64,000 nucleotides of DNA from a bacterium (GTDB lineage Bacteria > Zhuqueibacterota > Zhuqueibacteria > Residuimicrobiales > Krinioviventaceae), in NCBI GenBank assembly GCA_963674595.2, contig CAXXFV010000004.1, forward strand, positions 224,001 through 288,000, given 5' to 3'. The notes beneath the pieces are model-generated. The model made no database searches. It was not told where the DNA came from and saw only the letters and a program-made list of their open reading frames with translations. Made by a program: the position numbers and the translations under genes. This document shows positions 14,687 to 32,477 of the stretch, piece after piece (the stretch's first letter is position 1; every line of letters begins with the position of its first letter).

Positions 14687-15360
14687 CTATGAATAATTAA
14701 CAGAAAAAATTTGTCGTTTCTTTTTTGAATCCAGATCTATTTTTTTTAATATCTTACGTAAACCAAACCATCCTATTTTCACATTTCCGTATTGTGGTGT
14801 ATTTAACATCCGGGCAATATTTAATGTACTGGAATTGGGATGAGTTGTTACAATTTTTTTAACTTTATCTTCAATAGACAAATCCGTTCTAATTGGTTGA
14901 TCGGATTGTGTTGTTTTTATCTCTTTGTCCGCAACAGGAGTTGCTGATTTGGGTTCAGTTGTATTAACTTCAACAACGTTTGTTTGTTTACTTCCATTTG
15001 ACAAAAGTCGTTCAAAGTCGCTAACAGCTTCTTCCAACGTGTCAAAGGCTTTTAAAATATAATGAAACTCGAGTAATTCAAAAACTTCATAAACTTCAGG
15101 AATCATTCGAACCAGTTTCAAGTCTCCGCCTTTTTCACGAATACCTTTAATTTCACTGATAAAAATACCCAGCCGGCACTGCTGACATAATCAACATTTC
15201 CTAAATCAATAATGATATTGTATGAACCCGCTTTTAATAAAGAGTTCAATGCATGTTCCAGCTCGGAAGAGGTAGTGGTATCAATATACCCGCCAACCTT
15301 AATAACTGAAACACTGTTCTGGCTTCCAGTTTTTTCTACAGACAACTGAATACCTTCCAT
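14687..15360 (-). CDS. STAS-domain anti-anti-sigma factor (RsbV/SpoIIAA-like) with C-terminal HTH; frameshifted at ~15168-15170 (about 224 aa if repaired)
   Basis: ORF 15118..15360 gives GYIDTTT...IIIDLGNVDYVSSAGW. Adding one G to the GGG run restores WGIFISEIKGIREKGGDLKLVRMIPEVYEVFELL, continuous with ORF 14687..15121. Confidence 0.85.
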
Positions 15361-15473
15361 TTTTATTAGTCTCCATTAGTTCCCCATTCTATTCCTACGC
15401 CACTCTAAAAGAATGCATTTTATATAATATTTTCATTTTCCTTGAACTTCCCCGCAACACCTAAAGTGTCATT

Positions 15474-15502
15474 AATATAGTTGTTAAACCTTAAAATGTC
15501 AA
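15474..15502 (-). promoter_or_regulatory. Sigma70-type promoter for the STAS gene (possibly extending to obgE-dprA)
   Basis: Minus strand TTGACA-N17-TATATT in the intergenic gap. Confidence 0.65.
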
Positions 15503-15529
15503 TAGTATTTTCTTGTCAAAACAGTAGAA

Positions 15530-15937
15530 TTATGAAAGATTAAGATATTGTTTAGCACGTTCTATGCTGTTTCTAATATCTTGTCTTTCAGGAGAAATTT
15601 TGAGAATTTGTTCCCATTGATTTATAGCTCGCCTAAAGTCTCCCTGATTGGCATGAATAACTCCTAAATTTTCATGCGCCTCGATATTTTCAAAATCCAA
15701 TTTAATTACTTTTTCATATTCTTTAGCGGCTTCGTTATATAAACGTTGTCTGTAAAGTGCATTCCCGCGCAAAACATGGGCCTGCCATTTATCCGGATAA
15801 TTTTGTATTATAGTATTTAATAGTTCCATTGCTTTTTTATAACTGCCATCAGAATACAATTTTGAGGCATCTTCCATCTTTTTTGTTATACATATATTCA
15901 TCTTTTTCAAGATTGACATCAAGAGGAAATTTTTCAT
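15530..15937 (-). CDS. TPR domain; probably the frameshifted C-terminus of the 15849..19646 protein
   Basis: Three TPR-like repeats (AHVLRGNALY, AHENLGVIHA). It overlaps the end of the upstream ORF, and removing one A from the A6 run at 15879-15884 fuses them (DEYMYNKKMEDASKLY). Confidence 0.75.
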   Translation of the reverse strand: MKNFLLMSILKKMNICITKKMEDASKLYSDGSYKKAMELLNTIIQNYPDKWQAHVLRGNALYRQRLYNEAAKEYEKVIKLDFENIEAHENLGVIHANQGDFRRAINQWEQILKISPERQDIRNSIERAKQYLNLS

Positions 15938-18900
15938 GATCGGACATTTTCTTTTTATCTGTTAAAGCTTCTTTTAACAGCATTTCAAACTGTTCTTCAT
16001 CTTCATCATAAAAAGTATCATCCGACTCTACAAAATCCAACAATTCATCAAACGATAAACTTTTGGAATCTTCTTCAACAACAGATTCCTCATCACCTTG
16101 TTCAAACTTGAAATCGGAAATATCCCAGTTTATTTCCTCTTCAAATTCATTTTCCGAGTGGTTGTTTATTTGTTCCTTTATTTCATTTTCAAGAATTTGT
16201 TCAGAAATTGTTTCTTCTATTTCGCCGGTTGTGGAAATAACACCTTCTTCATCTATTATTTCAATAAACTCATCAAAGGAATCGGAAAAATCTTTTTCTT
16301 CGTCAAACAACAAAGAACTTTCTTCATCTATAAAATCTATATCCTCAACCGGTTCACCTTCAAATTCATCCTTTTCTTCTTTCTTTTCAGGTTCATCAAG
16401 ACCACCACCGGCATTTAAAGCATCAATAAAATCAAGCTCTTCTTTTTCCGATTGGGTTTGTAAATGATCGGTGTCGGAATATTCAAGATCCCCTATTTCT
16501 TCTTCCTTTTCAGCTTCACTTTCCGGTTCGGTTTCATCTCCGGCAAAGTCAAAAATTTCCAGGTCAGAGAAATCATCGGCTTCCAGTTCAAGGATAGCAT
16601 CATCAGTTTCTGTGTCGGGTTCCGGTTCTATCGATGCTTTTTCGTCTTGTTTAACTTTATCTCTTTCTTCATCAAAAGGAGCTTCAAAAAATTCAGATTC
16701 AGACACATCAATTACTGATTCGTGTTCAGATAACAGTATATCTGTATCCTGGTCAACAATCATATCATCTTCATCATGGACAAAATCAAAATCCATTGAA
16801 TCATCTACAGATGACAGTTCATCATCTTGATTTTCGTGAATATCATCTTCTTTTACATCTTTAACTAATTCTTGTTGTTCATCAGATTCATCACGATCTT
16901 GAACTCTATCCGGCTGCTCAGGCCCGCTTTCCTGCTGACGGACGGTTACATTTTTTCTTTTATCAAATAAATCAACAAGAGGGGTCAGCAATAAAGAGTC
17001 CGGTTCTAAATCCAAAAGCTCCAGGGGGGACTTGAATTCCTGAATTACCTGGGCAACCTCTTCTGTTTCAACCGGCTTTGTTGTAATCTCAGCGTCTAAT
17101 TCAATATCCTTAGATTTTTTATCCTGTTTCGGAAGTTCTTCAGATTCAAACTGTTTCAAATCTTCTTCTTCAGGCAGCGAATAATTTGCTTTTTGTAAAA
17201 TGACTTTGCCGTCAATGGTCAACATGGGTGTTCCGGGCGGCTTAATCCGGCGTTTTTTACCACCTCTGGCAATAAAAGCTTTCCTCAATTCTTTAGTGTT
17301 TAGCCTGGACCGAACAAGTTCTTCATAAATTTTAGCAGCGCTGATGATAGAAAAACTATAACGTTCTGTATTTAATTCTTCACTGATCCTTTTTGCGCCA
17401 TAGTCCGGGAACCGTCGGATAATGTCATAAATTTTTGTTTTTTCTTCAATACTGAGATGGCGAGCTTCAATTTGTTCTTCTTCGTTCTCCAGGGTAAACT
17501 GATCAAGACCTTCTTTTTCAAAACTGGCTTTATACTTGTTATAGGCATAAGTCGTGATGCCGACCGATTCACAGGCCTCTTTGATACTTTTTCCTTCGGA
17601 AACGAGATTAAAAACTTTTTTAGCCCGTTTTAGCTCTACTTTTTCAGCAGATGACTTTTCTTTAATAGAAACAAGTGTAATATCATCGTTTTGTGGAAAA
17701 CCTTCGGTGAAAGCTACAATTTCCCGTTGGAGTTTTTCAACAAACTCACCGGCGGTCAAATGTCCAAATCTTCGTACAACATTCAAAAAACGTTCTTCAG
17801 CAAACAATTGCCGTTTGGCATTCATTGCTTCTGTAATGCCGTCCGTATATATTATTAAAATATCATCTTCAGCTAAAGAGACAGTTCCGGACTCGATGGA
17901 GTTACGAAACAGGTGCTTATCCGGCAAAGAAATACCTATGGGGAAGCCTCGGGGATTTAAATAATAGGTATTATTCGTACTGGGTCGAAACAGAATCATC
18001 GGATTGTGGCCGGCGCTGGCAAAATTTAAGCGGCGACGTTTAGAATCGATAATGACATAAAAAAGGGTCACAAACATGCCCTTTTTCATGTCATTAACGA
18101 CAAAATCGTTTACGCGCGCTAATACTTCTGCAGCATCTTTAATTCCACGTGCTTCTGTTCGTAATGCAGTACGAATCATGGTCATAACAAGTGAACCGGG
18201 AACACCCTTTCCGGAGACGTCGGCTACTACTATACCCAGAGTATCGCGGTCTACTTCTACAAAATCAAAATAATCACCACCTACCTCTTTTGCGGCTGCA
18301 TAATAGGATGAAATGTCATAACCTTCAATATCAGGGAACTCACTCGGCAAGAGCGTTTGCTGAATTTCCTGTGCAACCTGCATTTCTTTTTGCAGACGTT
18401 CCTGTTCCGCCAGGTTGAGCTGCGATGCTTTAAGCTGTTGCGTAATATCGCTAAAAGCCTGGGCAATTTCACCAACTTCGGTTGATGAATCAATATCCAT
18501 TTCTTCAGCGACGCCGGGTTTTCCAAGTTCTTTAACCCACTCCTGAAGACGGCGAAAAGGATTCATTACAATGTAAATCAATAAAAAGAGTCCTGCGACT
18601 CCTATGACCCAAACGAACAATGCCAGACTAAGATTATTTTGCCTGGCTTTAGAAACATCAGAGTAAATTTTGTCTCCATCAATGAACAGGTGGGCCCTGG
18701 ACATTATATGGTCCTGTTCGTCCACAACGGGATAGACAATATCCACGACTTTTTTTCCGTCAGGCTGCCGAAATTCAAAAACATTTTTTTGAATTTCCTT
18801 AACATTATCGGGAAATTTAAAAGGCTCTAATATTTCTCCTTCATCAGCCCGGGCGATAATCGTGTTGCTGTTATCAACAACAAAGGCATTATATAAAATA

Positions 18901-19646
18901 TCCCGATGTTCGGACATTTTTAAAGTAGAAATAGGCTTGTAAGCGCTGGATAATACATCCCACTCCTGACTGCCCGATTCAATAAGCTGCTGCCGTCGTT
19001 CAGGGTCAAAACCCTGAAAGCTTGTTGCAACTTCAGTGGCAAGAACAGAGCAAGCCTGCCGTCCCCTGTCCAGATAATCTTTCAGGACAATATCATCATC
19101 CCTAAAAAATAAAAAGAAATACCCTATTATTATCAATACAGTGTAAATGGACAGGGAGATAAGCCAATAACGTGCTTTTAGAGTTAATGGAATGGTTGGA
19201 ACCGCCAGCCTTCGCTTTGTAAGAGGCTCCCTGTTTTTAACCATCCATAATTCATTTCCCTCTTCTGTCTTTCGGTAATCTATGGAATCCAAAAGGCGGC
19301 GCATAATAAAAATACCCAAACCGCCTTTTTTACCAATTTCGACATAACGCTGCAGGTCTGGATCACCAACCTGGCGCGGATCAAAATATTTTCCCTGGTC
19401 GATAAGAACGATAGTAATACTGTTCTTCTTTAACAAGGCACGAATGGTTATACTGCCTTCCCAATCACGATAAGCATGCTTGATAATATTGGTAGCTGCT
19501 TCATCTATAGATAACTTGAAAGCATTTACAATTCGTTCGGAAAAACCATGTCTTCTACCCACCTTTGTAACAAAATCTCGAAGTTCTCCCAAATACTCAA
19601 TTTTTGCCGGTACTTTTAATTGTTCTTTTACAATATTCCGAAACAA
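15849..19646 (-). CDS. Membrane partner-switching protein: RsbW-like HATPase, TM, periplasmic domain, TM, HAMP, SpoIIE/PP2C phosphatase, tandem HTH, acidic tract (TPR follows after the frameshift)
   Basis: IDEAATNIIKHAY, DQGKYFDP, GGLGIFIM (anti-sigma kinase); two hydrophobic segments; EVGEIAQAF (HAMP); VGGDYFD, ADVSGKG, SAGHNP, YTDGITEA, DDIT (PP2C); long D/E-rich region. Confidence 0.9.
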   Translation of the reverse strand: MFRNIVKEQLKVPAKIEYLGELRDFVTKVGRRHGFSERIVNAFKLSIDEAATNIIKHAYRDWEGSITIRALLKKNSITIVLIDQGKYFDPRQVGDPDLQRYVEIGKKGGLGIFIMRRLLDSIDYRKTEEGNELWMVKNREPLTKRRLAVPTIPLTLKARYWLISLSIYTVLIIIGYFFLFFRDDDIVLKDYLDRGRQACSVLATEVATSFQGFDPERRQQLIESGSQEWDVLSSAYKPISTLKMSEHRDILYNAFVVDNSNTIIARADEGEILEPFKFPDNVKEIQKNVFEFRQPDGKKVVDIVYPVVDEQDHIMSRAHLFIDGDKIYSDVSKARQNNLSLALFVWVIGVAGLFLLIYIVMNPFRRLQEWVKELGKPGVAEEMDIDSSTEVGEIAQAFSDITQQLKASQLNLAEQERLQKEMQVAQEIQQTLLPSEFPDIEGYDISSYYAAAKEVGGDYFDFVEVDRDTLGIVVADVSGKGVPGSLVMTMIRTALRTEARGIKDAAEVLARVNDFVVNDMKKGMFVTLFYVIIDSKRRRLNFASAGHNPMILFRPSTNNTYYLNPRGFPIGISLPDKHLFRNSIESGTVSLAEDDILIIYTDGITEAMNAKRQLFAEERFLNVVRRFGHLTAGEFVEKLQREIVAFTEGFPQNDDITLVSIKEKSSAEKVELKRAKKVFNLVSEGKSIKEACESVGITTYAYNKYKASFEKEGLDQFTLENEEEQIEARHLSIEEKTKIYDIIRRFPDYGAKRISEELNTERYSFSIISAAKIYEELVRSRLNTKELRKAFIARGGKKRRIKPPGTPMLTIDGKVILQKANYSLPEEEDLKQFESEELPKQDKKSKDIELDAEITTKPVETEEVAQVIQEFKSPLELLDLEPDSLLLTPLVDLFDKRKNVTVRQQESGPEQPDRVQDRDESDEQQELVKDVKEDDIHENQDDELSSVDDSMDFDFVHDEDDMIVDQDTDILLSEHESVIDVSESEFFEAPFDEERDKVKQDEKASIEPEPDTETDDAILELEADDFSDLEIFDFAGDETEPESEAEKEEEIGDLEYSDTDHLQTQSEKEELDFIDALNAGGGLDEPEKKEEKDEFEGEPVEDIDFIDEESSLLFDEEKDFSDSFDEFIEIIDEEGVISTTGEIEETISEQILENEIKEQINNHSENEFEEEINWDISDFKFEQGDEESVVEEDSKSLSFDELLDFVESDDTFYDEDEEQFEMLLKEALTDKKKMSDHEKFPLDVNLEKDEYMYNKKDGRCLKIVF

Positions 19647-19668: not shown

Positions 19669-21678
19669 TTAATTTGTCTTTTGTTGGCGTAACTTTTCAA
19701 CAGCAGCATCCAATGCGCGTAAAATAGATATATTGTTTGGTTGTAAATCTAATGCTTTTTGATAAAAATCCAAAGCAGTTTTAAAATCACCTTTTGTATA
19801 AGCCATAACACCTTTTGTATAAAGGTCTTTAACTTCGGGGGTCATTTTCATTTGTCGTGCTTCTGCACGTTGTTTTGTTGCTTTATATTTTTTCTGTAAT
19901 TCTTTATTATTCGGATCGCTTTTTAAAGCGTCTTCATACAAAGCGGCAGCTTCTTTCCAGTTTTTATCACGTTCATAAATAGCCGCACGTCTTACTTTAT
20001 CTTCATTGTTTAACCTTAATTCCAGTCTGTTTAACCGATTGGCGATATAAGATTCCACTTGTTTATTTCCACGGGCGAGGCGCCGTGCTCGGTTATAATA
20101 ATTTACAGCTTCATATCGTTGACCACGTTCTTCAAATTTTTTCGCATTTTCAAGTAATTCTTTTAATTTTTGTTTCAAATCTTCGGTTATTTTATCGCGA
20201 AGTTCTTTAACAATTTCACTGTTCGGTTCAACTTCCAATGCCCGTTCACATTCAAGCAAGGCATCCGGGTACTCTTCATCTGCAAAATAACCCATTGCCT
20301 TGTTATAATGCTCTTCAACAAGCTGTTGCTGGCGCCTTCTGGCCGCCGCTTCCTGATCACGTTTTAACAATTCCAGGTTTTCTTCTTCCTGCTGTTTTTT
20401 GATCGCCATATTAATGCGGCTTAAGAGGTCCCTTGCGTCGGCAAGTTCAGGATCATCACCGGATTCATCATAGGTAAGGACTTTGTTAATGGTCGTAAAT
20501 GCGCGCGCATAATCTTTACTCTCAAAAAATTGATTTGCCCGTGCCATTCCGCTGACTATGGCATTTTGTCTTTCAAGCTGTTTCTGCCGGTAAACCTCTT
20601 CCTGAATGCGTTGTATTTCTTTTTCACGAATTTCCGCCAAACGCTGCTCCCGATCTTTACCTATATTCATAACAAAAGATAACCGGTGGCTGCTTCCCAA
20701 AAGAGAATCCCAACCATTCCAATATGAATAATCGAGTTCAAAACCGACAAATTTTAAACCAAAACCATAGGTCGGCATCGCGCTTTTAGTGTCGGTAATG
20801 TCGGGTCGCATATCATAGCCCAGCCTGAGCATAAAGTTTTGGTTAAAATCATATTCTACACCCATGTGATATTGGGTTGGGATATTATAATTAAAATTAT
20901 TTGAAAATTGTCGTTCATTAACATCCATCTCAAAAGCAAAAGTAAGATAGTTTTTTGGATTGCTCATAACAACAGTTTTTGACAATCCAAACCTGTAATT
21001 TCTCGGTGTTGTTTCGCGGTCTTCTATGGCCCGAATACTTCTTTGAATAAAATTCTGGATATTAAGACCGATTTTTACATTGCCTAACACTCCTGAATTA
21101 AAAGGCGACAGTAATATGCCGACATCCGTACCAAATCCGGATTCGGTAATATTGCTGACATTTAATGAATTATCCGCATACCCCGGAAGATCAACACGTT
21201 CCAATTTAAATGTTGCACCCAATGACATCCAGTCAAGCATTTGGTAACCATAACCAAATAAAAACAATGTCCGGCTGTAATTTGTTGATCCCAACTTTGT
21301 AGCATCATCATCCCGAACCGTTATATCACCTGTGGATAACCTGAGAATACCTACAGACATGGTTCCCATTGTCAATGTTGGGTAGGCATAGGAAAAATAA
21401 TTATATTGGGTTCCGGCAGGCAAATTTGAATAATAGAAACCCAGTCCCATTTGAGGAATTTGGTCCAATGCAGCCGGGTTCCAGTATAGCGCAAAAGGAT
21501 CGTTGGCAACAGAAACATAAGCGCCTCCCATAGCCATAGCCCTGGCGCCGACCGGAGAATCAAAAATATCCGTCATTCCTCCCCACTGGCTGCTTGAGTT
21601 TTGTGCAAAACACACCAGCGGAAAAAATAGAAATGCGAGTTTAAAATATTTTAATATTTTTGTTTTCAAATCAGTCAT
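19669..21678 (-). CDS. PorV/PorQ-family outer-membrane beta-barrel fused to coiled-coil and TPR repeats
   Basis: Signal peptide; VGARAMAMGGAYVSVANDPFALYWNPAAL signature; FMLRLGY...ELDYS...LGSSHRLS barrel end; multiple C-terminal TPRs. Confidence 0.85.
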   Translation of the reverse strand: MTDLKTKILKYFKLAFLFFPLVCFAQNSSSQWGGMTDIFDSPVGARAMAMGGAYVSVANDPFALYWNPAALDQIPQMGLGFYYSNLPAGTQYNYFSYAYPTLTMGTMSVGILRLSTGDITVRDDDATKLGSTNYSRTLFLFGYGYQMLDWMSLGATFKLERVDLPGYADNSLNVSNITESGFGTDVGILLSPFNSGVLGNVKIGLNIQNFIQRSIRAIEDRETTPRNYRFGLSKTVVMSNPKNYLTFAFEMDVNERQFSNNFNYNIPTQYHMGVEYDFNQNFMLRLGYDMRPDITDTKSAMPTYGFGLKFVGFELDYSYWNGWDSLLGSSHRLSFVMNIGKDREQRLAEIREKEIQRIQEEVYRQKQLERQNAIVSGMARANQFFESKDYARAFTTINKVLTYDESGDDPELADARDLLSRINMAIKKQQEEENLELLKRDQEAAARRRQQQLVEEHYNKAMGYFADEEYPDALLECERALEVEPNSEIVKELRDKITEDLKQKLKELLENAKKFEERGQRYEAVNYYNRARRLARGNKQVESYIANRLNRLELRLNNEDKVRRAAIYERDKNWKEAAALYEDALKSDPNNKELQKKYKATKQRAEARQMKMTPEVKDLYTKGVMAYTKGDFKTALDFYQKALDLQPNNISILRALDAAVEKLRQQKTN

Positions 21679-21690
21679 AAAATTAATTAA

Positions 21691-24600
21691 TTATTTAACA
21701 ACAGCAATTTTTGTAATGGCTGTTTCTGTTTCTGTTATTATATAAGCCAGGTATACACCATTCATTACCCTGAAATTCTGGCCATTAGTTCCGTCCCAAA
21801 TGACATCACCTTGATGAACACCTTCACTTGTTTGTAACTGGTCTGAACTTTTTGAAAAACTCCAGGACCGTACCAATTCTCCGGTTAAAGTAAAAATCTT
21901 GATTTCAACATCACTCGGTTGACTGAGATAATATAAAAATTTTGTTTCCGTTCTGTCCGGACGTCCAAACGGGTTTGGGTAATTACAAAATGTTTTTTCC
22001 AGTTGTTCTTCAACAACAACAGATAATTTTGAAGAGATACCTAAATCTAATACTTGATTATAATTAGAATCAACAATTGTCAACGGCAGTCCGGATACAT
22101 CAGAGGCCCGGATATTTTCAGGACTGTTGATATATAATTGAAATCCATAGGCACTGCCAACATTTCCAATATCTGCAACAATATCAATAGAATCCGGTTC
22201 TGTACCTTTCAGAGTATCTGGTAAATTCGATTTTAAATCCAACAGGATAAAGTCTGTACCAAAATTCGTCTGCCACGCAAAAACATGTGCCGGATCGGAA
22301 TGTCGAACGGCAGCGACGCGTGAAAAAACGGATGCCGGTGATACCGGTTCACCTTTTTTATCTTTAACAAATATTTTCAAGCTGTCAATAATGGAAACAC
22401 TGCTCGAAGCCGCATCCTTGTTTCTGGCTTTAAAACCCATCATTTTAACATTTTGACTGCCTTTAGAAACAACAGATTTTTCCTGTAAAACATAGGGTTC
22501 GATAACTACCATACCTGCTTCGGAGGATACCAATATTTTTGCCAAATCTTTGTCAATAGAGGCTTGCTGTTTTGTATAGGTGTCATTTGGTGCTTCCAGC
22601 AAATAAAACTTAATCGTATCGGGAACATCTGTTTTATATTTAGGGGCCTGAATTGTCCAGGAAATTGCATCATTTGCACCGGCAGCGGTTTTAATCGTAT
22701 CACCTTTTGTTGTAAAACCATTATCTGAAAGTTTTATTTTAACCTGATAGGAACCGATCAGGTCAGACTCTCCGATATTTGATAAATAGCTTACAACCTG
22801 AAATTCACTACCGACACGCACGGTACCGGAATCAATAAAAACATCCTGGTCCATTGAAGCTAAAAGTTCGACACCTGCTTTATTTAATGTCTGTAAAGTA
22901 AAGGTCTCAGTATCTTTAGAAATTTTAGCGTTTGTACCGGAATTTTGATCAACAGGCGCCTGAATAAAATTAAACTCAAATTTCGACAAACCCTCTGGTT
23001 TGGCAGCGGGAGCCTGTAGTTCCCACTCGGGAAAGATATTATTCTTAACATCCGCAACGGTAACAGAAAGTCGTCTCTCACCTGACAGAGAAAAACCAAC
23101 AGGTAACGGAGCTAATTCGACAACAAAACTGTCCGTATCTGCAAAGCCGGCATCACCCGAATTGGTAATAGATGTTGTAAGGGTAAAATACTGGCTTGTG
23201 GAAACGCGATCTACAAGTCCTTCAGGAGCCGATATTTTTGGAGTTATAGAAACAACAGCCTGGTTTTCAACGGTGATGTCCATAGCATCAGAAAAAATTT
23301 CTAAATCTGCTCCAGACCGAAGGTCCTTTGCATTGACTTTAATTTGTACATTCCCATCGCCGGTCACACCTGGTGCCGTGACTTTCCAGGTAACTCTTTG
23401 GTCGTCTCCTACAGCGATATCCTGGTTTACCGGATTTACAGCGTCGAATTCTTCCGAAGAAAATATAATCTGCGCACTTATATCTTCAGCAACCTGACCG
23501 GAACTTATTTCGGCTGTAATGTAAAACGTTTGATTCGTGGACAATTTATTGTCTCTTGCACCGACAGGATTACTGACCCACAAAGAATCAACACTGATAT
23601 ATCCGCCTTCCTGTGTATAAACGATTAATTCCCGAGTATTGGTTTCAACTTCCACACTTTTATTGGAATTTTCATCTTTTGGAACGCTGTCAGAGTCAAT
23701 TTCTACCTTAACTCGTTTATTTTGCAATACTTCATTCGGAGCAGTAATAGTCCAGCCAATATTTTCATTTATATCAAAATCTTTAGTAGCAGATTCTCCG
23801 TCAGCCAAAGATAATCCACTATCCAATAGATCTAGTTTAAGCTTTCCTTTTGCTGTTTCAGGATCAAGACCGGCAGAGCCAAGGTTGGTAACCCGGGCCT
23901 GTAATGTTGCTGTTTGACCTGTTGATAGATAGGTTGCCCCGTCTGTCATTGTTGTCAGAGGTATTACAGACAATGCTTCCAAATTTAAAATTGCTTTAGT
24001 AACAACTTTTTTAATGGTTATACTTGCTTTAGAAACTTTTTCTTTTCCGTTTTCTTCACCTTTTAATTCAAGTTGAAGGGTATGATTATCTGAAACTTCG
24101 GCTGATGGAGCAAAGATCGTCCATGACAATGTAGCAGAATCCTGATCAACAGTTTTTTCCAGACTATCATCGTCTGCTAACGAATAACGCCGGCTGCCGG
24201 CAATTGCCGGTAATAAAAGTTTGACTTTTCGATTGGTCAAATTCTTTGACGTTTTGACCTTGGCTTCCAATTGAAGGGTCTGTTCCGTAGAAAGCACACT
24301 GTCTTTGGCGCCTTCGGGTTCAATAATTGTAAAATAATCTATTAGCAGAATTGAGGTTTTGGTCTCTACCAGAAAACTATCCTCTTCCACCTCTATCAGG
24401 GCATCTTCAAGTGTGTTCAAATCTTTAGGTGTTTCAGTAATCGCAGCCTTGACCGCTAACGGAGCGGTATCTGTATCAGGGGATTCTAATTCGTAATTAA
24501 CTTCTTTTGATACATCATCTCCTGTAAGACTGAAATTTGCCGTCTGAGGATCCGTTATATAATCTATTCCATCAAAAATTCGATAACCTTCAGGCGGCGT

Positions 24601-27600
24601 AAAGACAAAGTTTCCATCCTTAACCTGAGATGTTCCTAATCTTTCAACTTTGACTGTAACCTTAAATTTGCTCGACGCTGTTACAACCGAATCTGCTGAA
24701 TTTGCCGGGAACACAGAAATATTAACCCGTGCCGGTTCCTGAATTCGAATCCGTGCCTGGTCATCATCCGCATCAGGTTCCTGAATCTGGGCTATTTCAT
24801 CACTGCCGATAGCTTTTGCAGATAATATTTTCGCCGTATAAAGTTCCGAAAGTTCTTCATTAACACCCAAATCATTTACAGCCGTAACATCAAACACAGC
24901 ATAGGCCGTTGAATCTTTAGCAATACGCGGGATTATTACGGTATCCGGTTTAACCATAGACAAAACAGTATTTGATGTGACCTCTCTGGAATCCAATTCA
25001 ACCTTAACACTGTCAACGCCCAAAACCTGCCCGGCTTTAACTTTAACCTGAACCTGAAATGCCTGACCTCGATTAACCAGACCGATTCCATTGTTATCAA
25101 ATGTGTTACAAACTATTTCCGTGTCTTTAACCTGCACCCTGGCATTAACACTTCTCACAATAATATCGGCCGATGCATTATCCGTCAAAACCGGGCTGTC
25201 CGTCGGCAGGTTTTTATCTCTGGCCTGCAATGCTACATCAATTTTCCCTGTTCCGGCCAGCTTTCCATTGTTACGGACAATATAAACCAACGAATCTATA
25301 GCGCCGCCGGGTAAAACCAATCCTACCTGGTTTTTTAATTTTTGTGGTGGAGCGATGTCATAGTCCGCGTCAACAACATCGTTTATAGAAAAAACAATAT
25401 TCTCAGCATTAATATTGACAAATTCCAAATCAGAACTTCCTGTATTAGTAACCTGGACAAAAATATTCCAGTTTACCAACTCATCTCCGGCATTGATAAT
25501 GTCCTCTTGCGGACTGACAGATAAAATTTCAAAAACTGCCGGGTTTTCCACAATGGCCTGAGTTATGTTATTTCCCTCAGGATCTAAAATTGTTACACCC
25601 TGGTTATTATGAACACCCAGGGCATTATTAATATTTGCTGTAAACTCTACATTCCCTGATTCACTACCGGCAGTTATTCGAAAACTCAGTTCCTGTTCCT
25701 GGTTGCCTTGAATGTTTTGAGCAAAAGTAATAGGTGATGTTAATACTTTACCCAATGTTTCGCTACTTGTGCCTAAAGATACCTGAACATCTTTGGCTGC
25801 TTCTGAACCTGTATTTTTGACTTTAACACTTACATCAAAACTCTGTCCTGTATTAACAGTCCCTTCTGAACTAGGGGCAAGATTTTCGACAGCTATAATT
25901 TGCAGCCTGGCAGGTTCATGAATTTTAATAATGGAAAAATTATCATTTGATGACGAAATATCAGCAATTGACCCGTCTCGGGCAACAGCCCTGATAATGT
26001 GTGCCTCAATTTTCTCACCGGTCAAATTCTCAGCATCAGCAGCGGTCAGGTTAAATGTCAGCGTATCAGTTTGACCAACGCCCAATCTGTGACTTTCTTT
26101 TATACCATTTATAATAGCCGAACTTGGCGCTGTTAATTGAACTTTAACGGTATCCAATTCCTGAGCACCAACATTTTGGACCATCACCTTTATAATTAAA
26201 TCCTGACTAATATTTACATAACCCGTATCATTAACAACCACGGGCAAATCAGGATCAACAAAAGTTTTCACAAGCATTACATTAGAGCGGTTAGTTGCCT
26301 GCACGGATGTTTGTTTGGCCTGGGTAGCGATAGTACGGTTTGCGTCATTCAGGTCCGTGGCCGAAACTTTTCCGGTTATTGTAATTTCGCCGCCGGCTGG
26401 TCCGTTTGAAGTAACATCAAAAATTAATGTATCGCGTTCGCCGCCCTTTAACACCAAGTCATCTTCGGTTACAGCCCGTGGACTAAATACATATCCTTCT
26501 CCCGGATTAAACGTAATGTCGTCCTTGGTCGGCTGTTTCAGTTTTAATGAACCACCCTGCTCTGTGTTATTTTCAACATCGAGAAAAATTTGCCAGTCGA
26601 CACTTGTCCCGGGGATAACGGTATCAACAGATGTATATACCTGGTGTAAAACAAGGTTTCCGGGTTCCTGAACATGAACCGTAATTGATGAATCCAGGGG
26701 CGTTAAAATTTTTGCCGACTGTTTTGTATTACGTGCAATAGCTGTTTCAACTTTGGCAACGAGATTATCTTTAAATCCGGGTAAATCAGGTGCATTAACT
26801 CGTACACCAGGTTCCGTCCATACTGATTCTCCCGGACCTAATGATTCAATATTAAAAGTCTGGCCTTCCGGGGAAAATTGAAATACATCCGATTCCGAAT
26901 AAAACCGAATCGTGGTTTGCTGAACAGTATCACCTGATTCCGGATTGCCCGGATTTGTCACAAGGGCTTTAACATAAAATGATTGTTCGGAATTTACAAA
27001 AGAATCTGATGGAACATCTATAATAACCTGGTCCAGTCGTATAGCCGCCGAATCCTGAATTGCCAAACTAACCTGGCCATTTCCCGGAGCTGTTGAAAAA
27101 CTGTATATCAAATTCCTGTTTACTTCGGTCATTCGGACTGTGGCGTTGACTGTTGTTATACCGACTATTGATTCTTCCGCACTTGTTAACTGAACATTAT
27201 AGATCAAACTATCCCGGCTTCCGCCTGAAAGTATTTTACTATTACTTCCATCAAAAAATCCGGGTTTGGTAAAATTAAAATATTCATCACCAATTCCAAA
27301 ACTCAGTTTGGTATTTTCTGAATCCAATAATAAATCTGCTTCTCCTGCATTTTCGAGATGCAAAGTCACTTTCCAGGGCGTAGTCTGTCCGCGAGTGATA
27401 CTCGACTGGCTCAAATGCAGCCGCGTAAATTCCAGTTCAGCAGGGTTTTGGACCTGAATTTCATCGCCTCTCGGTAGTGTACTTTCCGGATGATCATCTG
27501 TATTGACCAAATCGGTCATAAATACAGATCCATTAAGGACCGTCTGTTGGTTCGGTGTTTCCGCAGATACATTTGTAACCGCAATACGAATGGTGTCGGT

Positions 27601-30600
27601 TTGTCCGGCTGATAAAATATTACTTTCACTAACAAAAGAATTCGGAATATCAAAAGTAAAATATTCGGACACGTCGTTGGTGCCCTGAGAAAAAGTCAAT
27701 TCCGCCGTATCATATTGCAAATTATTGGAACCATTATTGACCAGAATAAAATCAATTTTCCATTGATTGGTTTGGCCAATTGTAACACTGGGTGTTGAAG
27801 CAACAATATGATTAAGTGAAAATTTTCCCGGATCACTGACCGTTAATGAAGTTGTTAATTCTATATTATCAGAAAAAGCATTATTGTTTTCAGTACCACT
27901 TATTATTAATTGAGGTAAATACTGGCCCTTTTGAAATGCAAGCGGTATTAATGTCCTTAAAAAGTTTATTGTAACCGTTTGTCCTCCCGGCACACGGTTA
28001 TCATAAGCCGGATCAAGAGCAGCACTGAAAAAATGAAGACCATCGTTAAATTGAAATTTCGTTTGGCTTGTGTTTAAAATTAAATCAGAGCCGCCGATGT
28101 TGCTAACATCAACAGTAAAACCAACCTGTGCACCGGCAGAAACAGTCGTTGGCTGAAGACTGTTTTCAACATATTCGATATTTGCCGGTTCCTGAACGGT
28201 AATAATTTTAGTTGACGATGTAAATTGTTCAACAAAAAATTGATTTCGGTTAGGTTCACGAACACGAACCTGAGCCTGTCCAAACAGGTCACCCAGCACG
28301 TTTCCAATGGTTGTTGCTTTAAAAATAAGGCTGTCGCTTTCACCGGCCTTTAAAATAATGGAATTGGATGCAGATAGTTTTTCCGGCAATGTAAAAGTAA
28401 AATCTTGCTGATGTACGCCTTCCTGCAATAACCTTACCCAGGTATTTTCAGCATTTGTTAAATCGATTTCAACATCAGCGCCGCCGTCATTGGCTACATG
28501 GACCGTAACCCACCAATTTGGTTCAACCCCAAAAGTAACAAATTCCGGAACGGCCTTAATATTTGTTATTTTAAAATCAGATGCTTCCTGTATGGACACA
28601 ACAGCTTTCATAGCTTCAGATGCGGTGATCTCTTTTGCGGCCTGAGTGTTTACATTTTTATAATGAATATTTGCACCTATTAAAACATCACCGACCTGGC
28701 TGCCCGTTTCGGTAACGGAAAAAACAAGCGTGTCTGTTTCATTTGACTTTAACTGTGAACCTAAATTTTGAAGCGCATCCGAACAATTATGAACAAATGT
28801 ATCATTAGAAAACTGCAGGACGCTTGTATCAAAATCCATTTCAATGGTGCTGCCGCCCTGGTTTTTCAACACAACGGCAACAGTCCAGGGGTGCGTAGCA
28901 TCACCAGCAGTGGCTGTTGTTTGTGAAGGAATAATGTCAAGAATGCGCAGGTCATCTGCTGTTTGGACTTCGAATCCTCCAAAAACATCACTGATATTGG
29001 AATTGGTATAAATCTGGTTTGTCGCCTCAACCCGCCCATAAATATCGATAGGGCCTGTTGTTGTTCCGGTCTCATTAACAGTAAATTGTAAATGTCTCGT
29101 TTCGCCGGCAGGAATGGTTAATCCGCCCTCTACCAGAGCTGTAGGGGTTGAAATATTATATTCAGATTCCGTATAATCGGTACCACCACGTTTAAAACGA
29201 ATATATGTCTTGTCTGTGTCTATGGATAACGTCAGATCAATTCCGCCGGTGTTATGAATCCCCATTAAAACAGTCCAGTCAGCTAGTTGCCCGGCAGTAA
29301 CGGTAGATTGAGAAGCGGTAAGCTCTGTAAACTCTAATGATGAGCCTTCGACCACCTGAAATAAATTCGGGATTTGTGTAACAACTTGTTTTTCAATTCC
29401 GGAATTGGCATCACTGTAATTAATTGTCTGACGAACTGTTATATTGCCAAGGTCCGCTTGATCAGTAACTGTAATATAATAGGTCAACGCCTGAACAGCG
29501 CCGCCATCAACAGTTTCAGGATTTCCATCATATATAACAACAGAAAACTGTGAAGTAACATCTTCCAGATTATTAATAAACTGAAATTGACTCGATATCA
29601 AATCGGCTGGAGCCGAGTTTGTAAAATTTAAATTATTTGAAACCTGAGTTTGCAGCTCAATCCCCCGGCTTCCCTGGGCCAGTTGATTATCTTCAATCGA
29701 AATACTGTTAATTGCCAAATTTGCTGCTTGCTGGACAATCCATGCAGGATTTGGGTTTGTAAAGATCGTTGAAATCGAACTTGTACCTACAAGACCATCT
29801 AATTGACCGTTTATTGTAATAACTTCCAGAGCAGCCGTAGACGCTACATCAACTAAAAATTGTAACGTTGCTATTTGATTCGCGGCAATGGATCTGGTTT
29901 CAAACGCCGGAACCTGATAATCAATATCCCGATCAACAGTTCCTGATCTAAATTGAAGGACTGCTGATGTTAATGTTATTTGTTGACTACCACTGTTCTG
30001 CACACGCATGGACACCTGAACATTTGATTGTCCCTGACTAACACGGTCGGTAGCGCTGGTTATACTCAAAATATTAAGGGCACTAACAGTTATAGAGCTG
30101 GATTGAGTGGATATCCCTAAACTCTGGTCATGAACTGTAAATGTTTGTGTACCCGGTGTATTAAAAACAAAATTATTTCCGCCAAATACCATAGGGTGAC
30201 TTGTAAAATTGGTAGAGCCTGGTAATGTAGCAGACCCATCAGTACTGGTAAAATAAATTAACCCGCTGTAATTTGTTTTTTCATTGCCATAAGCATCTAT
30301 AGCACGAACAATAACATCTGTATTAAAAGAATTGCCTGCGGCCACAGATGTCGGATAATTTGAAAGTTCAAATTTGGCCAGACTTCCGGGAAGGACTGTA
30401 ATTGTACCGGTGGTCTTTGTTACACCCGTGGTTTGGTCCACTCCCCGCAGGGTGACCGATTCCACCCGATAAAGGGTCTGCTCTGCTTCTCCTGTTCCAT
30501 TAACCACAGGAATTTTTGTAAAACGCGGGGCATCACCATTGGGAGAACTACTACCGCCAATGGCCGCACTGATAACAATATTACCGGAAACCGGATTTAA

Positions 30601-31851
30601 GTACTGATCGACAGCATTGGTAACCTGCAATGTAAAAGGTACACCCGCTGTCTGAGTTGAATTCATAACAAGGGCAAAATCGTAAAGAGGGCCTGCCGAC
30701 ACCTGTATAGCACTGCTGGTTTTGGCGATTGTACCGTTCGTTACCGTAATTGTTTGTGTACCGGCAGAGCGGAATTGAAAATTTGAACCGGAAATTGATT
30801 TAATTCCGGCGTCATTTACCGGGTCAAAAGCAACAGGATTTTGGTCATCATAGGTCAATTCGGCACTGTTATCGGTTGACTCAAAATAAATAGTGCCGGC
30901 GTAATTTGTCTTGATATTTTTCCAGGCATCATAAGCGGTAACGGTTACATTACCATCAAGCCCTGAACCGGCATTTGTTGCTGTGTCATCAAGATCTATA
31001 TTATAAGAAGCAAGGGTTGAAGGTTGAATAGAGAACAATCCGGTTGTTCGTGAAAGTCCATTCACCGTTCCCCTTAGCTGAATATTTGTCTCTGCTTTGT
31101 ATAGCCGGACCGTTGCCTCACCTTCACCATTTTTTACAATGACATTGGTTAAAAAAGGCTGTGTAAAACCATCCGGAGCCGTATGTGCCTGACCATCTGA
31201 AAAAGAGAGCTGCACAATACCATCGGTAGGAGAATTGGCATCATCTAGAGCATTTTCAACACGAACGGTAAAATCACTGCCCGCATTAAAAGCCAAATTA
31301 GATACATCAATATCAAAACTGTTGATAGGGTTACCAATATCAAAAGGATCTGACCAGCCCTGATCAATAACAATGTCACTGTGGTCCAATGTTTCAACAA
31401 AAACAACAGCGTCCTGGACAACATCCGGAGGATTAATAATTGAAGTGATTGTTATTGTAAATGTTTCACCTGGCTGCACGGTTGAACCGGTCCCATCACG
31501 TTTACATACAATTTTTTGCAACCCATCTTCACTTACAAATTCGGGGTCATCAAAATTACCACTAAAAATAGTTTGACTGTCACTATAAACCGCGATAACG
31601 GGTGCCAGATCAAAATCGTAAATACTTAGATCAAAACCAATTTTTATACTTCCCTTACTCGGAATAGCGGTTCCGGCAGGATCTGTGGTGATTGTAAAAG
31701 AATAAGTCGATTGTTCACCAACAACGGCATAACGTGGATTAACAACAACTTGCTGCAAAGCGCCTGCAAGTGCGCTGACTGACCACAAAAATAAAAATGG
31801 AAAAATATATTTAAAATACTTGATTCGCATTGTAATTGAACAAAATCTCAT
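21691..31851 (-). CDS. Giant (3386 aa) secreted Ig-like repeat surface protein with T9SS-like FlgD-Ig CTD
   Basis: Signal peptide ending ALA; repeats VTAYDAWKN/VRAIDAYGN, GQxxxWxVxxxxxNxG and STxQxFxV..VxNxG; C-terminal NYPNPF...IFTLTGELV...WDGTNG...NGVYLA...KIAVVK. Alternative start ATG 31830. Confidence 0.85.
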   Translation of the reverse strand: MRFCSITMRIKYFKYIFPFLFLWSVSALAGALQQVVVNPRYAVVGEQSTYSFTITTDPAGTAIPSKGSIKIGFDLSIYDFDLAPVIAVYSDSQTIFSGNFDDPEFVSEDGLQKIVCKRDGTGSTVQPGETFTITITSIINPPDVVQDAVVFVETLDHSDIVIDQGWSDPFDIGNPINSFDIDVSNLAFNAGSDFTVRVENALDDANSPTDGIVQLSFSDGQAHTAPDGFTQPFLTNVIVKNGEGEATVRLYKAETNIQLRGTVNGLSRTTGLFSIQPSTLASYNIDLDDTATNAGSGLDGNVTVTAYDAWKNIKTNYAGTIYFESTDNSAELTYDDQNPVAFDPVNDAGIKSISGSNFQFRSAGTQTITVTNGTIAKTSSAIQVSAGPLYDFALVMNSTQTAGVPFTLQVTNAVDQYLNPVSGNIVISAAIGGSSSPNGDAPRFTKIPVVNGTGEAEQTLYRVESVTLRGVDQTTGVTKTTGTITVLPGSLAKFELSNYPTSVAAGNSFNTDVIVRAIDAYGNEKTNYSGLIYFTSTDGSATLPGSTNFTSHPMVFGGNNFVFNTPGTQTFTVHDQSLGISTQSSSITVSALNILSITSATDRVSQGQSNVQVSMRVQNSGSQQITLTSAVLQFRSGTVDRDIDYQVPAFETRSIAANQIATLQFLVDVASTAALEVITINGQLDGLVGTSSISTIFTNPNPAWIVQQAANLAINSISIEDNQLAQGSRGIELQTQVSNNLNFTNSAPADLISSQFQFINNLEDVTSQFSVVIYDGNPETVDGGAVQALTYYITVTDQADLGNITVRQTINYSDANSGIEKQVVTQIPNLFQVVEGSSLEFTELTASQSTVTAGQLADWTVLMGIHNTGGIDLTLSIDTDKTYIRFKRGGTDYTESEYNISTPTALVEGGLTIPAGETRHLQFTVNETGTTTGPIDIYGRVEATNQIYTNSNISDVFGGFEVQTADDLRILDIIPSQTTATAGDATHPWTVAVVLKNQGGSTIEMDFDTSVLQFSNDTFVHNCSDALQNLGSQLKSNETDTLVFSVTETGSQVGDVLIGANIHYKNVNTQAAKEITASEAMKAVVSIQEASDFKITNIKAVPEFVTFGVEPNWWVTVHVANDGGADVEIDLTNAENTWVRLLQEGVHQQDFTFTLPEKLSASNSIILKAGESDSLIFKATTIGNVLGDLFGQAQVRVREPNRNQFFVEQFTSSTKIITVQEPANIEYVENSLQPTTVSAGAQVGFTVDVSNIGGSDLILNTSQTKFQFNDGLHFFSAALDPAYDNRVPGGQTVTINFLRTLIPLAFQKGQYLPQLIISGTENNNAFSDNIELTTSLTVSDPGKFSLNHIVASTPSVTIGQTNQWKIDFILVNNGSNNLQYDTAELTFSQGTNDVSEYFTFDIPNSFVSESNILSAGQTDTIRIAVTNVSAETPNQQTVLNGSVFMTDLVNTDDHPESTLPRGDEIQVQNPAELEFTRLHLSQSSITRGQTTPWKVTLHLENAGEADLLLDSENTKLSFGIGDEYFNFTKPGFFDGSNSKILSGGSRDSLIYNVQLTSAEESIVGITTVNATVRMTEVNRNLIYSFSTAPGNGQVSLAIQDSAAIRLDQVIIDVPSDSFVNSEQSFYVKALVTNPGNPESGDTVQQTTIRFYSESDVFQFSPEGQTFNIESLGPGESVWTEPGVRVNAPDLPGFKDNLVAKVETAIARNTKQSAKILTPLDSSITVHVQEPGNLVLHQVYTSVDTVIPGTSVDWQIFLDVENNTEQGGSLKLKQPTKDDITFNPGEGYVFSPRAVTEDDLVLKGGERDTLIFDVTSNGPAGGEITITGKVSATDLNDANRTIATQAKQTSVQATNRSNVMLVKTFVDPDLPVVVNDTGYVNISQDLIIKVMVQNVGAQELDTVKVQLTAPSSAIINGIKESHRLGVGQTDTLTFNLTAADAENLTGEKIEAHIIRAVARDGSIADISSSNDNFSIIKIHEPARLQIIAVENLAPSSEGTVNTGQSFDVSVKVKNTGSEAAKDVQVSLGTSSETLGKVLTSPITFAQNIQGNQEQELSFRITAGSESGNVEFTANINNALGVHNNQGVTILDPEGNNITQAIVENPAVFEILSVSPQEDIINAGDELVNWNIFVQVTNTGSSDLEFVNINAENIVFSINDVVDADYDIAPPQKLKNQVGLVLPGGAIDSLVYIVRNNGKLAGTGKIDVALQARDKNLPTDSPVLTDNASADIIVRSVNARVQVKDTEIVCNTFDNNGIGLVNRGQAFQVQVKVKAGQVLGVDSVKVELDSREVTSNTVLSMVKPDTVIIPRIAKDSTAYAVFDVTAVNDLGVNEELSELYTAKILSAKAIGSDEIAQIQEPDADDDQARIRIQEPARVNISVFPANSADSVVTASSKFKVTVKVERLGTSQVKDGNFVFTPPEGYRIFDGIDYITDPQTANFSLTGDDVSKEVNYELESPDTDTAPLAVKAAITETPKDLNTLEDALIEVEEDSFLVETKTSILLIDYFTIIEPEGAKDSVLSTEQTLQLEAKVKTSKNLTNRKVKLLLPAIAGSRRYSLADDDSLEKTVDQDSATLSWTIFAPSAEVSDNHTLQLELKGEENGKEKVSKASITIKKVVTKAILNLEALSVIPLTTMTDGATYLSTGQTATLQARVTNLGSAGLDPETAKGKLKLDLLDSGLSLADGESATKDFDINENIGWTITAPNEVLQNKRVKVEIDSDSVPKDENSNKSVEVETNTRELIVYTQEGGYISVDSLWVSNPVGARDNKLSTNQTFYITAEISSGQVAEDISAQIIFSSEEFDAVNPVNQDIAVGDDQRVTWKVTAPGVTGDGNVQIKVNAKDLRSGADLEIFSDAMDITVENQAVVSITPKISAPEGLVDRVSTSQYFTLTTSITNSGDAGFADTDSFVVELAPLPVGFSLSGERRLSVTVADVKNNIFPEWELQAPAAKPEGLSKFEFNFIQAPVDQNSGTNAKISKDTETFTLQTLNKAGVELLASMDQDVFIDSGTVRVGSEFQVVSYLSNIGESDLIGSYQVKIKLSDNGFTTKGDTIKTAAGANDAISWTIQAPKYKTDVPDTIKFYLLEAPNDTYTKQQASIDKDLAKILVSSEAGMVVIEPYVLQEKSVVSKGSQNVKMMGFKARNKDAASSSVSIIDSLKIFVKDKKGEPVSPASVFSRVAAVRHSDPAHVFAWQTNFGTDFILLDLKSNLPDTLKGTEPDSIDIVADIGNVGSAYGFQLYINSPENIRASDVSGLPLTIVDSNYNQVLDLGISSKLSVVVEEQLEKTFCNYPNPFGRPDRTETKFLYYLSQPSDVEIKIFTLTGELVRSWSFSKSSDQLQTSEGVHQGDVIWDGTNGQNFRVMNGVYLAYIITETETAITKIAVVK

Positions 31852-32303
31852 TTATTAATTCGCATAACCCGATTTTTACTTTTATTAACATTGGGTATTA
31901 ATTTCTTCTTGTCTATTAACAAGTCAAACCCGTATTCGGTCTCCATGTTTGAGGGAGAAATAACATCCGCTACAATAATATCACAATCTTGATTAGCCGG
32001 TAAACTATTTCCGAGTCCGGTTCTTTTCAAAAAAACAGTATCCTGTTTTACGTTTATTGTAAAACCGCCCTTCAATTTAGAAGACGCTGCCATAATAACC
32101 GTAGAAAGTTGAAACTCCCTGGGAAATATAATAGCTATTTCAGCATCAGATCGAATTTCATTTTCTGCTCGAAATTCAAATTTGTAAGCGGCAGGTTTAT
32201 TGGGCTTTGTGTGTGCTGCTGAGACACGTAAGCCCTGTGCCTGTAAACCACCGGCAATACATAATACAAAAAATACTAATCTGTATAATTTCATATATTT
32301 CAC
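31848..32303 (-). CDS. Small secreted protein homologous to the N-terminal domain of the giant protein
   Basis: Signal peptide (GLQA-Q); YKFEF...IIFPREFQL...LKRTGLG...IIVADVISP aligns by eye with YSFTI...IGFD...CKRDGTG...ITITSIINP of 21691..31851. Confidence 0.7.
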   Translation of the reverse strand: MKYMKLYRLVFFVLCIAGGLQAQGLRVSAAHTKPNKPAAYKFEFRAENEIRSDAEIAIIFPREFQLSTVIMAASSKLKGGFTINVKQDTVFLKRTGLGNSLPANQDCDIIVADVISPSNMETEYGFDLLIDKKKLIPNVNKSKNRVMRINK

Positions 32304-32358
32304 AAGCTATTTTTATTGAATTTGGTTACTATTCATTTATAAAACATATATTCTGATC

Positions 32359-32423
32359 ATTTAGTTTCCTTTTTTTCCACTGTTTCACAGCAAACAAAAG
32401 TGTTTAACAAAGGAACACTAAAT
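32359..32423 (-). promoter_or_regulatory. Long imperfect hairpin in the 5' leader of the giant-protein operon
   Basis: ATTTAGTTTCCTTT pairs with AAAGGAACACTAAAT (one bulge); inner CACT/AGTG and TGTTT/AAACA pairs. Confidence 0.45.
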
Positions 32424-32461
32424 AGCTCTAAAGTCTGATTTTTAAAGGCTTTTAATTAATC

Positions 32462-32477
32462 AGCAAACTTTATACCA
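32462..32477 (-). promoter_or_regulatory. Putative sigma54 (-24/-12) promoter
   Basis: Minus strand TGGTATAAAGTTTGCT = GG-N10-GC with TGG and TTGC flanks, ~160 bp upstream of the 32303 start. Confidence 0.55.

Follow-up and report, generated by a model that had tools for sequence, protein, structure and literature searches.

A phylum-wide KSB1 gene cassette joining a giant surface protein, a PorV/PorQ-family barrel and a putative STAS switch without a sigma factor

Introduction

Can the state of a surface protein be passed across two membranes to a STAS-type phospho-switch which controls genes without a sigma factor? This question is raised by a run of genes in an uncultured KSB1 bacterium (GTDB Zhuqueibacterota), located in a 64-kb window that comprises positions 224,001-288,000 of contig CAXXFV010000004.1 of assembly GCA_963674595.2. 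The genes encode a small secreted protein, a giant surface protein with a C-terminal domain (CTD) resembling those of type IX secretion systems (T9SS), an outer-membrane barrel of the PorV/PorQ family with tetratricopeptide repeats (TPR), a membrane sensor with kinase and phosphatase domains, and a STAS protein (STAS1). Both the sensor and STAS1 carry a module of the helix-turn-helix (HTH) type.

SypA, HsbA and CapS form a small set of STAS switches which work without a sigma factor. In T9SS, PorU-PorV and PorZ-PorQ are cognate pairs. To our knowledge, T9SS regulation has been described only in a few Bacteroidota, and we know of no feedback from its cargo to the cell.

A first-pass annotation, made from the sequence of the window, had read the five genes as one unit forming a continuous path from the cell surface to the STAS protein. 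Here, we present a computational analysis of this locus and its relatives. The reading that we favour, with moderate confidence, is that of a cell-surface control cassette found throughout the KSB1 phylum and consisting of an adhesin, a barrel, a sensor and a STAS switch independent of sigma factors. Within it, a physical relay from barrel to sensor is offered as a specific, testable model and not as a finding.

Results and Discussion

Gene content and conservation of the cassette

The genes of the cassette all lie on the minus strand according to the open reading frame (ORF) table of the window. The small secreted protein of 151 aa (31848..32303) has an N-terminus resembling a signal peptide and matched no family. 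It is followed by the giant beta-sandwich-repeat surface protein of 3386 aa with a signal peptide (21691..31851), the start of which overlaps the small gene by 4 bp. A gap of 12 bp separates the giant gene from that of the 669-aa barrel-TPR protein (19669..21678), which consists of a PorV/PorQ-family outer-membrane barrel (aa 42-338) and a half made of a coiled coil and TPRs (aa 340-669). The gene of the membrane sensor (15530..19646) starts 22 bp further on, and STAS1 (14687..15360), in which a disordered linker leads to a C-terminal HTH-type module, follows. Co-orientation, gene order, overlap and both gaps agree with the first-pass annotation.

For comparison, 40 loci were cut out, half of them (20) from the same family or order and the other 20 from further families and classes of the phylum; one of these distant loci runs into a contig end. 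The order TPR gene, small gene (where present), giant, barrel-TPR, sensor and STAS1 is kept in all 40 loci (20/20 near and 20/20 distant), as expected from the co-conservation that had been proposed. The small gene precedes the giant gene in many relatives and is missing in some classes; giant orthologues, with lengths of 1802-3837 aa, are present in all loci, and barrel and sensor genes are adjacent in every one of them. Full-length matches were obtained for the sensor in 41/41 genomes of the family and order and for STAS1 in 167/167 KSB1 genomes (165/165 when the two unpublished genomes, G158 and G162, are left out), both tallies including kin and thus not counting independent cases. In a scan of contigs, the best 80 of 235 loci match loci placed in the KSB1 phylum. 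Look-alike clusters with barrel-TPR genes, found most commonly in Zixibacteria, Calditrichota, Elusimicrobiota and Eiseniibacteriota, are leads only.

The TPR gene at the head of this order encodes a 382-aa protein without a signal peptide (32706-33854, minus strand). It lies upstream of the predicted promoter of the giant operon and, in most loci, including those of other classes, neighbours the cassette; it may be part of the system, though transcribed separately.

Two frame breaks are assembly errors

As printed in the record, the sensor ORF ends after 1265 aa (15849..19646) and its C-terminal TPR stands in another frame (ORF 15937..15530), while STAS1 is broken into the ORFs 15360..15118 and 15121..14687. 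Contigs from four of four public runs, belonging to four studies, have one base more behind position 15167 and one fewer at 15879 than the record; the sample behind the record itself may be among these runs. Both breaks are single-base homopolymer errors, in a G run and an A run of the coding strand. In 37 of the 39 complete loci of relatives, the sensor (1111-1665 aa) and STAS1 (215-247 aa) are each a single ORF, the two exceptions showing many further frameshifts. Both errors are absent from four independent public assemblies, and the relatives have single ORFs. Without the extra base at 15879, the true sensor is therefore a single protein of about 1371 aa, and with the missing base put back behind 15167, STAS1 is intact at about 224 aa. 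The breaks are thus errors of the record, and the earlier decision to read through both of them was correct. Similar errors may be present in other genes of this assembly.

The sensor and STAS1 have the parts of a phospho-switch

The sensor is composed, in this order, of an RsbW-like kinase, a transmembrane segment (TM), a periplasmic Cache-like domain, a second TM, HAMP, PP2C, two transposase-type HTHs, an acidic disordered tail and a TPR region. The kinase (aa 12-137) matches HATPase_c_2 (PF13581, E 1.6e-27) and remains below the cut-off of the NCBIfam RsbW equivalog (75.9 vs 145); its N, G1 and G2 boxes show no variation in 38/38 sensors. The PP2C domain (aa 467-662) matches SpoIIE (PF07228, E 1.9e-49), and the residues D458, D461, D476, D602, D654 and D655, which make up four aspartate motifs, are likewise invariant in 38/38 sensors. 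Between these two enzymatic parts, a periplasmic stretch of about 155 residues (aa 183-338, 18633..19100) is flanked by two hydrophobic spans and followed by HAMP, and no match to REC was obtained in the sensor. Behind PP2C lies an HTH region (aa 668-815, 17202..17645) made of an HTH_28/HTH_23-like unit and a 60-aa module shared with STAS1; within it, aa 680-789 align to the N-terminal HTH of IS481 transposases (NCBIfam, E 1.3e-9). The acidic tail behind the module is 189-725 aa long among orthologues, and the protein ends in three TPRs. These C-terminal TPRs are cytoplasmic, which corrects the first-pass annotation.

Intact STAS1 orthologues match PF01740 with E-values of 1.7e-17 to 1.5e-21. 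The serine pair S60/S61 of the motif DYVSSAG, at the start of helix 2, is invariant in 33/33 sequences. A structural model of STAS1 (predicted local distance difference test score, pLDDT, 75.7) shows a STAS fold, a disordered linker and a four-helix C-terminal domain with a pLDDT of about 90, and Foldseek matches it to SpoIIAA and RsbV at E 2.7e-8 to 1e-6 and a TM-score of about 0.8 on the target. Judging from these conserved catalytic and substrate residues, the sensor would act on the neighbouring STAS1 as both kinase and phosphatase.

No sigma factor gene was found in the 40 loci by ORF tables and marker searches, which did not scan every flanking ORF, and no SigB/F/G equivalog reached its cut-off anywhere in the genome (best 122.9 bits vs 234). 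The earlier remark that the locus has no sigma factor of its own stands. Three group-3-like sigma candidates with partial matches are present in the genome.

A 60-aa module is shared by the sensor and two STAS proteins

The C-terminal module of STAS1 and the region behind PP2C of the sensor are homologous (hhalign probability 97.9%, E 3.8e-13), which confirms that HTH-type domains are present on both switch proteins. The genome contains exactly three copies of the module, namely in the sensor, in STAS1 and in a second STAS paralogue (STAS2). Families detected in the HTH region of 38 sensor orthologues are HTH_32 (28/38), HTH_28 (27/38) and HTH_23 (26/38), and the model of this region has a pLDDT of 79. 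The last helix and the tail of the module are rich in Lys and Arg. Binding of DNA by the modules of the STAS proteins may be proposed from these sequence features.

The module is rare and matches only 329 of 1.84 billion representatives at E<=1e-3. Among 42 sampled matches of at least 200 aa, 29 have a STAS domain, some with FHA in front of it, three are sensors of the kind described here, and five are arrays of transposase-type HTHs. The metagenome proteins P0109, P0117, P0119 and P0136 show the architecture FHA-STAS-module, and P0003, P0022, P0120 and P0151 are arrays of transposase-type HTH modules without a transposase catalytic domain.

Two other relationships of the HTH region were considered and set aside. 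The sole match in a profile search against PDB sequences, a weak one to an acetyltransferase (E 0.0031), was taken as chance. A relation of the module to the RpoN box was tried because three entries of the sigma-54 RpoN domain stood among the top rows of a VIA-align search, and it was rejected at the sequence level, as hhalign against the C-terminus of the genome's own sigma-54 gave a probability of 1%.

Predicted promoters and the polysaccharide operon of STAS2

A sigma-54 type -24/-12 promoter element, TGGTAT-N5-TTGCT (32462..32477, minus strand), precedes the small gene by about 160 nt and is the sole match to TGGYAYN5TTGCW in the window. Loci with an upstream match to this regular expression number 15/22 for the giant operon, 29/50 for STAS2 and 0/39 for STAS1, against a background of 0.032 per kb per strand. 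When a position-weight matrix was derived from the sigma-54 matches, the counts rose to 18/22 for the giant operon and 36/50 for STAS2; since these counts are circular, those of the regular expression are relied on. The genome encodes rpoN and about 30 enhancer-binding proteins. In front of STAS1, a sigma-70-type promoter, TTGACA-17-TATATT (15474..15502, minus strand), matches at 11/12 positions, and TTGACA-type elements, read by eye, occur at the same place in most orthologous STAS1 spacers. The giant operon thus appears to start at a sigma-54 promoter and STAS1 at one of the sigma-70 type, both predicted from sequence motifs. Of the five genes first read as one unit, four would lie behind one predicted sigma-54 promoter; STAS1 has a predicted promoter of its own.

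STAS2 is a protein of 236 aa with the same C-terminal module, encoded on another contig (C16:367009-367716; L133:10010-10720). Its gene is followed by those for Wza-like, Wzc-like, epimerase, priming-transferase and glycosyltransferase proteins. Wza, Wzc, epimerase and priming transferase genes follow STAS2 in 46/49 loci, including 20/20 from other orders and classes, and the remaining three loci end too near to show the downstream genes. A location in a polysaccharide locus of the sigma-54 type is hence a trait of STAS2 and not of STAS1, which lies beside the sensor.

The giant protein, the barrel and the secretion context

The giant protein and its orthologues show weak matches to CARDB, NPCBM_assoc and Invasin_D3, and a Pfam search with six of these orthologues yielded nothing beyond scattered Ig-like matches below threshold. 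The putative T9SS-type sorting domain of the giant protein comprises aa 3291-3386 (21694..21981, minus strand). In the window, this tail stays below all cut-offs (TIGR04183 18.2 vs 23, E 1.8e-3; PF18962 18.4 vs 27; FlgD_ig 20.7 vs 27), so that the T9SS-like CTD noted at first is sub-threshold in this protein itself; it is recognised in most orthologues, with matches at E<=0.01 to FlgD_ig in 32/36 tails and to CHU_C in 15/36. Por_Secre_tail matches 9/36 of the orthologous tails. The motif NYPNPFG is conserved in the domain. Any relation between the small protein and the N-terminus of the giant was also tried; BLASTP gave E 0.073, which is not significant.

The barrel matches the PorV/PorQ family model NF033709 at aa 42-338 (158.1 bits vs a cut-off of 90) and falls short of the equivalog cut-offs of PorV (67.5 vs 250) and PorQ (76.6 vs 220); a TPR_2 match (E 4.8e-20) was obtained in the same protein. 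A T9SS is indicated in this genome by SprA (656.7 bits) and PorU (879.7 bits), both over cut-off, and a CTD-like stretch ends more than 40 of its proteins.

Further genes in this genome belong to the same context. Besides PorU proper on contig C15, two paralogues resembling PorU, each about 1610 aa long (C16:414305-419455; C4:130388-134934), lie directly upstream of PorV-family barrel genes, which suggests several parallel PorU/PorV pairs resembling attachment complexes. Two further minus-strand genes of the window encode a 465-aa protein with an FlgD_ig tail (1369-2766) and a 760-aa metallophosphoesterase resembling purple acid phosphatases with a Por_Secre_tail (5090-7372). An envelope-biogenesis neighbourhood at 49102-53134 (minus strand) comprises genes for DUF4175 (1121 aa) and DUF4159 (220 aa) proteins beside three PPIase/SurA-like genes and one for a TPR protein.

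A modelled contact between barrel and sensor

A contact between the TPR half of the barrel and the periplasmic part of the sensor had been suggested by the first-pass annotation. It was modelled with barrel aa 340-669 and sensor aa 183-338, using alignments of 38 rows each. The complex model reached a score of 0.65 vs 0.00 for the best of three controls. In a benchmark, the score mark was reached by 116/157 solved complexes and by 2/215 mismatched pairs, counts that are only roughly valid here because own alignments were used. All contacts (100%) recur between the model runs, and the partner has a pLDDT of at least 89.

The modelled interface is formed by the last TPR pair of the barrel protein (residues 612-658) and by residues 227-240 and 271-273 of the sensor. 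On the TPR side, an aromatic residue at position 620 (Y/F/W) is kept in 37/38 sequences and N649 in 34/38; on the sensor side, an acidic residue at 228, kept in 32/38, and the hydrophobic residue that follows it lie within an otherwise variable region. The model supports, and does not show, that the TPR arm binds the sensor's periplasmic domain. Of the path from the surface to STAS1 that had been drawn at first, this modelled contact is consistent with the outer part, while the TPRs at the end of the sensor are cytoplasmic and a small molecule would serve equally well as input.

A model of the cassette and its alternatives

Taken together, the results lead us to the following model. The sigma-54 promoter would drive expression of the small protein, the giant protein exported by the T9SS, its dedicated PorV/PorQ-family barrel and the inner-membrane sensor. 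The C-terminal domain of the giant most likely sits on the barrel at the outer membrane. Through its RsbW-type kinase and its PP2C domain, the sensor would set the phosphorylation state of STAS1 and probably acts likewise on STAS2, which heads the Wza/Wzc operon. The STAS proteins would be the output and need no sigma factor, as in the case of SypA; their HTH-type domain may bind DNA, as that of CapS does, or dock on the homologous module of the sensor. Signals would enter from the periplasm, either through the TPR arm of the barrel, which could report the state of adhesin and barrel to the Cache-like domain, or through a small ligand. In the most specific form of this model, the barrel would signal across the envelope: its TPR arm moves on or off the sensor as the adhesin CTD is loaded or lost, this flips the sensor between kinase and phosphatase, and two STAS-HTH proteins are freed onto DNA at the sigma-54 operons for adhesin and polysaccharide. 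We regard this form as unlikely as it stands. If true, the type IX pathway would here sense secretion state or surface contact and would respond, with no sigma factor, through DNA binding by a domain derived from transposases.

Several observations weigh against the cassette as one control unit. Conservation of gene order within one phylum partly reflects shared descent; the order does persist across classes, where obg and dprA flank only some of the loci. Because its predicted promoter is a separate one of the sigma-70 type, STAS1 may be regulated apart from the giant gene. No common operator or enhancer emerged from k-mer counts upstream of STAS1, STAS2 and the giant operon, in which nothing but promoter elements and A/T-rich words exceeded the shuffles. 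Cross-talk is possible, since the genome contains 19 PorV-family barrels over cut-off, four other RsbW-like kinases and eight other STAS loci. Regarding the module, VIA-align of the HTH model of the sensor gave Z-scores of 5-5.9, tied among many DNA-binding HTH proteins, and Foldseek against PDB gave none below E 2. With respect to secretion, GldK remains below its cut-off, and a search of the genome for the GldM family had no match, a result which is uninformative because the controls were equally silent. Finally, no part of the sensor is less conserved than its periplasmic domain (mean column identity 29%, no invariant column), and distant sensor homologues match sCache_3_2 (E 2e-11, 6.8e-5 and 2.2e-6), as does one KSB1 orthologue weakly (E 0.04). 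Cache domains usually bind small ligands, and a small-molecule signal is thus an equally good input.

These last matches, together with the fast divergence of the periplasmic domain, are what one would expect if the cassette were a functional unit without a physical relay through the barrel. In that case, the Cache-like domain binds a small environmental ligand, the switch tunes adhesin and polysaccharide, and the TPR arm has no role beyond secretion or anchoring, perhaps through contacts with parts of the T9SS or with peptidoglycan. TPR arms are known on T9SS outer-membrane parts such as PorE (PMC12773672), and the look-alike barrel-TPR clusters of several phyla, as leads, point the same way. 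The complex model, scoring far above its three controls, and the unbroken adjacency of the barrel and sensor genes, 22 bp apart in the window, argue against this possibility, to which we attach some weight without favouring it. Similar, limited credence is given to the view that the shared 60-aa modules are docking domains: the copy on the sensor would recruit the STAS proteins, and the real output would be a protein partner of the unphosphorylated STAS, as proposed for SypA, which acts below transcription through an unknown partner (PMC10120452). It would explain why the module is found on the enzyme and its substrates alike and almost nowhere else, and why one copy sits on a membrane-bound protein, an awkward place for DNA binding, and is followed there by the long acidic tail. 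The descent of the module from transposase-type DNA-binding HTHs speaks against docking, as do its best fold matches, which are weak and all DNA-binding domains, the Lys and Arg of its last helix and tail, and the precedent of CapS, a STAS-wHTH repressor under phosphorylation control (PMC13373217).

A canonical partner switch would leave the HTH modules and surface genes incidental: the RsbW-like domain would serve as anti-sigma factor, retaining a sigma factor from another locus, with STAS1 as its antagonist. The kinase is indeed closest to the models of the anti-sigma-B factor RsbW (E 2.2e-21, below cut-off), and the three group-3-like candidates might provide the sigma factor. We nevertheless consider this improbable, given that no SigB/F/G equivalog and no sigma gene were found in the searches of genome and loci described above, that STAS1 has a conserved output-type domain of its own in 167/167 genomes, and that a single membrane protein unites kinase and phosphatase, a fusion which recalls SypE with its downstream STAS partner (PMC10120452). 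The favoured reading remains that of a sigma-factor-independent switch kept with its surface genes.

Significance

Throughout an entire uncultured phylum, the gene of a probable cargo stays with those of a barrel and of a complete phospho-switch, and a concrete contact between outer and inner membrane has been modelled for them. The cassette would extend the STAS switches without a sigma factor to a form with periplasmic input and two HTH-tagged substrates. It would also link such a switch to a giant adhesin and a polysaccharide operon, the usual two ingredients of biofilm matrices, so that a biofilm-type role may be considered. No description of such a cassette was found in the open-access literature, and the results suggest an undescribed coupling of the cell surface to gene control. 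The impression that the system had not been described holds in this respect for the cassette; STAS switches without a sigma factor as such are already known from SypE/SypA (PMC10120452) and CapK/CapS (PMC13373217).

Comparison with known systems

With regard to secretion, the cassette resembles the cargo-barrel pairs of T9SS (PorU-PorV, PorZ-PorQ and the SprB-SprF type) in that the gene of a protein with a putative CTD adjoins that of a PorV/PorQ-family barrel. Cargo with a type B CTD is anchored via adjacent PorP-like barrels (PMC9143113). In contrast to these pairs, the KSB1 barrel carries a periplasmic arm of 330 residues with coiled coil and TPRs, is followed by a signalling gene and does not reach the equivalog cut-offs of PorV or PorQ.

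The catalytic and substrate folds of the switch are the same three as in RsbW-RsbV-RsbU and SpoIIAB-SpoIIAA-SpoIIE. Unlike in these systems, kinase and phosphatase are fused and membrane-anchored, the STAS protein has an output-type domain, and a cognate sigma factor was not found in the loci and genome searched.

A close likeness in enzyme architecture is SypE of Vibrio fischeri, in which an N-terminal RsbW-type kinase and a C-terminal PP2C domain on one polypeptide act on the STAS protein SypA, its downstream partner, without a sigma factor (PMC10120452). In KSB1, kinase and PP2C are likewise found on one polypeptide beside a STAS partner, on which they would act in the same manner. Promoters of the syp polysaccharide genes depend on the sigma-54 activator SypG (PMC3843225), and STAS2 similarly heads a Wza/Wzc operon behind a sigma-54 element. 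Differences lie in the sensor, as SypE is cytoplasmic with a central receiver domain whereas the KSB1 protein has two membrane spans, a periplasmic Cache-like domain, HAMP, HTHs, an acidic tail and TPRs; in the STAS proteins, which carry an HTH-type module in contrast to the single domain of 105 aa of SypA; and in the location of the sensor gene, which is encoded with a giant T9SS cargo and a barrel and outside the polysaccharide locus.

On the output side, a counterpart is CapS, a STAS-wHTH repressor that leaves DNA when CapK phosphorylates a conserved serine of its STAS domain, again without a sigma factor (Chambers et al., EMBO J 2026, PMC13373217). The KSB1 proteins share the order of STAS and HTH-type domain and the presence of an HTH on the kinase partner as well, the HTH parts being likened by description. 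CapK has the architecture HTH-STAS-GHKL, is soluble, activated by ssDNA and devoid of a phosphatase, and the pair is located upstream of anti-phage operons (PMC13373217). The KSB1 kinase differs in architecture, its neighbours are surface-protein and housekeeping genes, and the module is of the transposase type (HTH_32-like). The KSB1 cassette thus combines traits of SypE/SypA and of CapK/CapS and adds to them a periplasmic input and a fixed neighbourhood of T9SS cargo and barrel.

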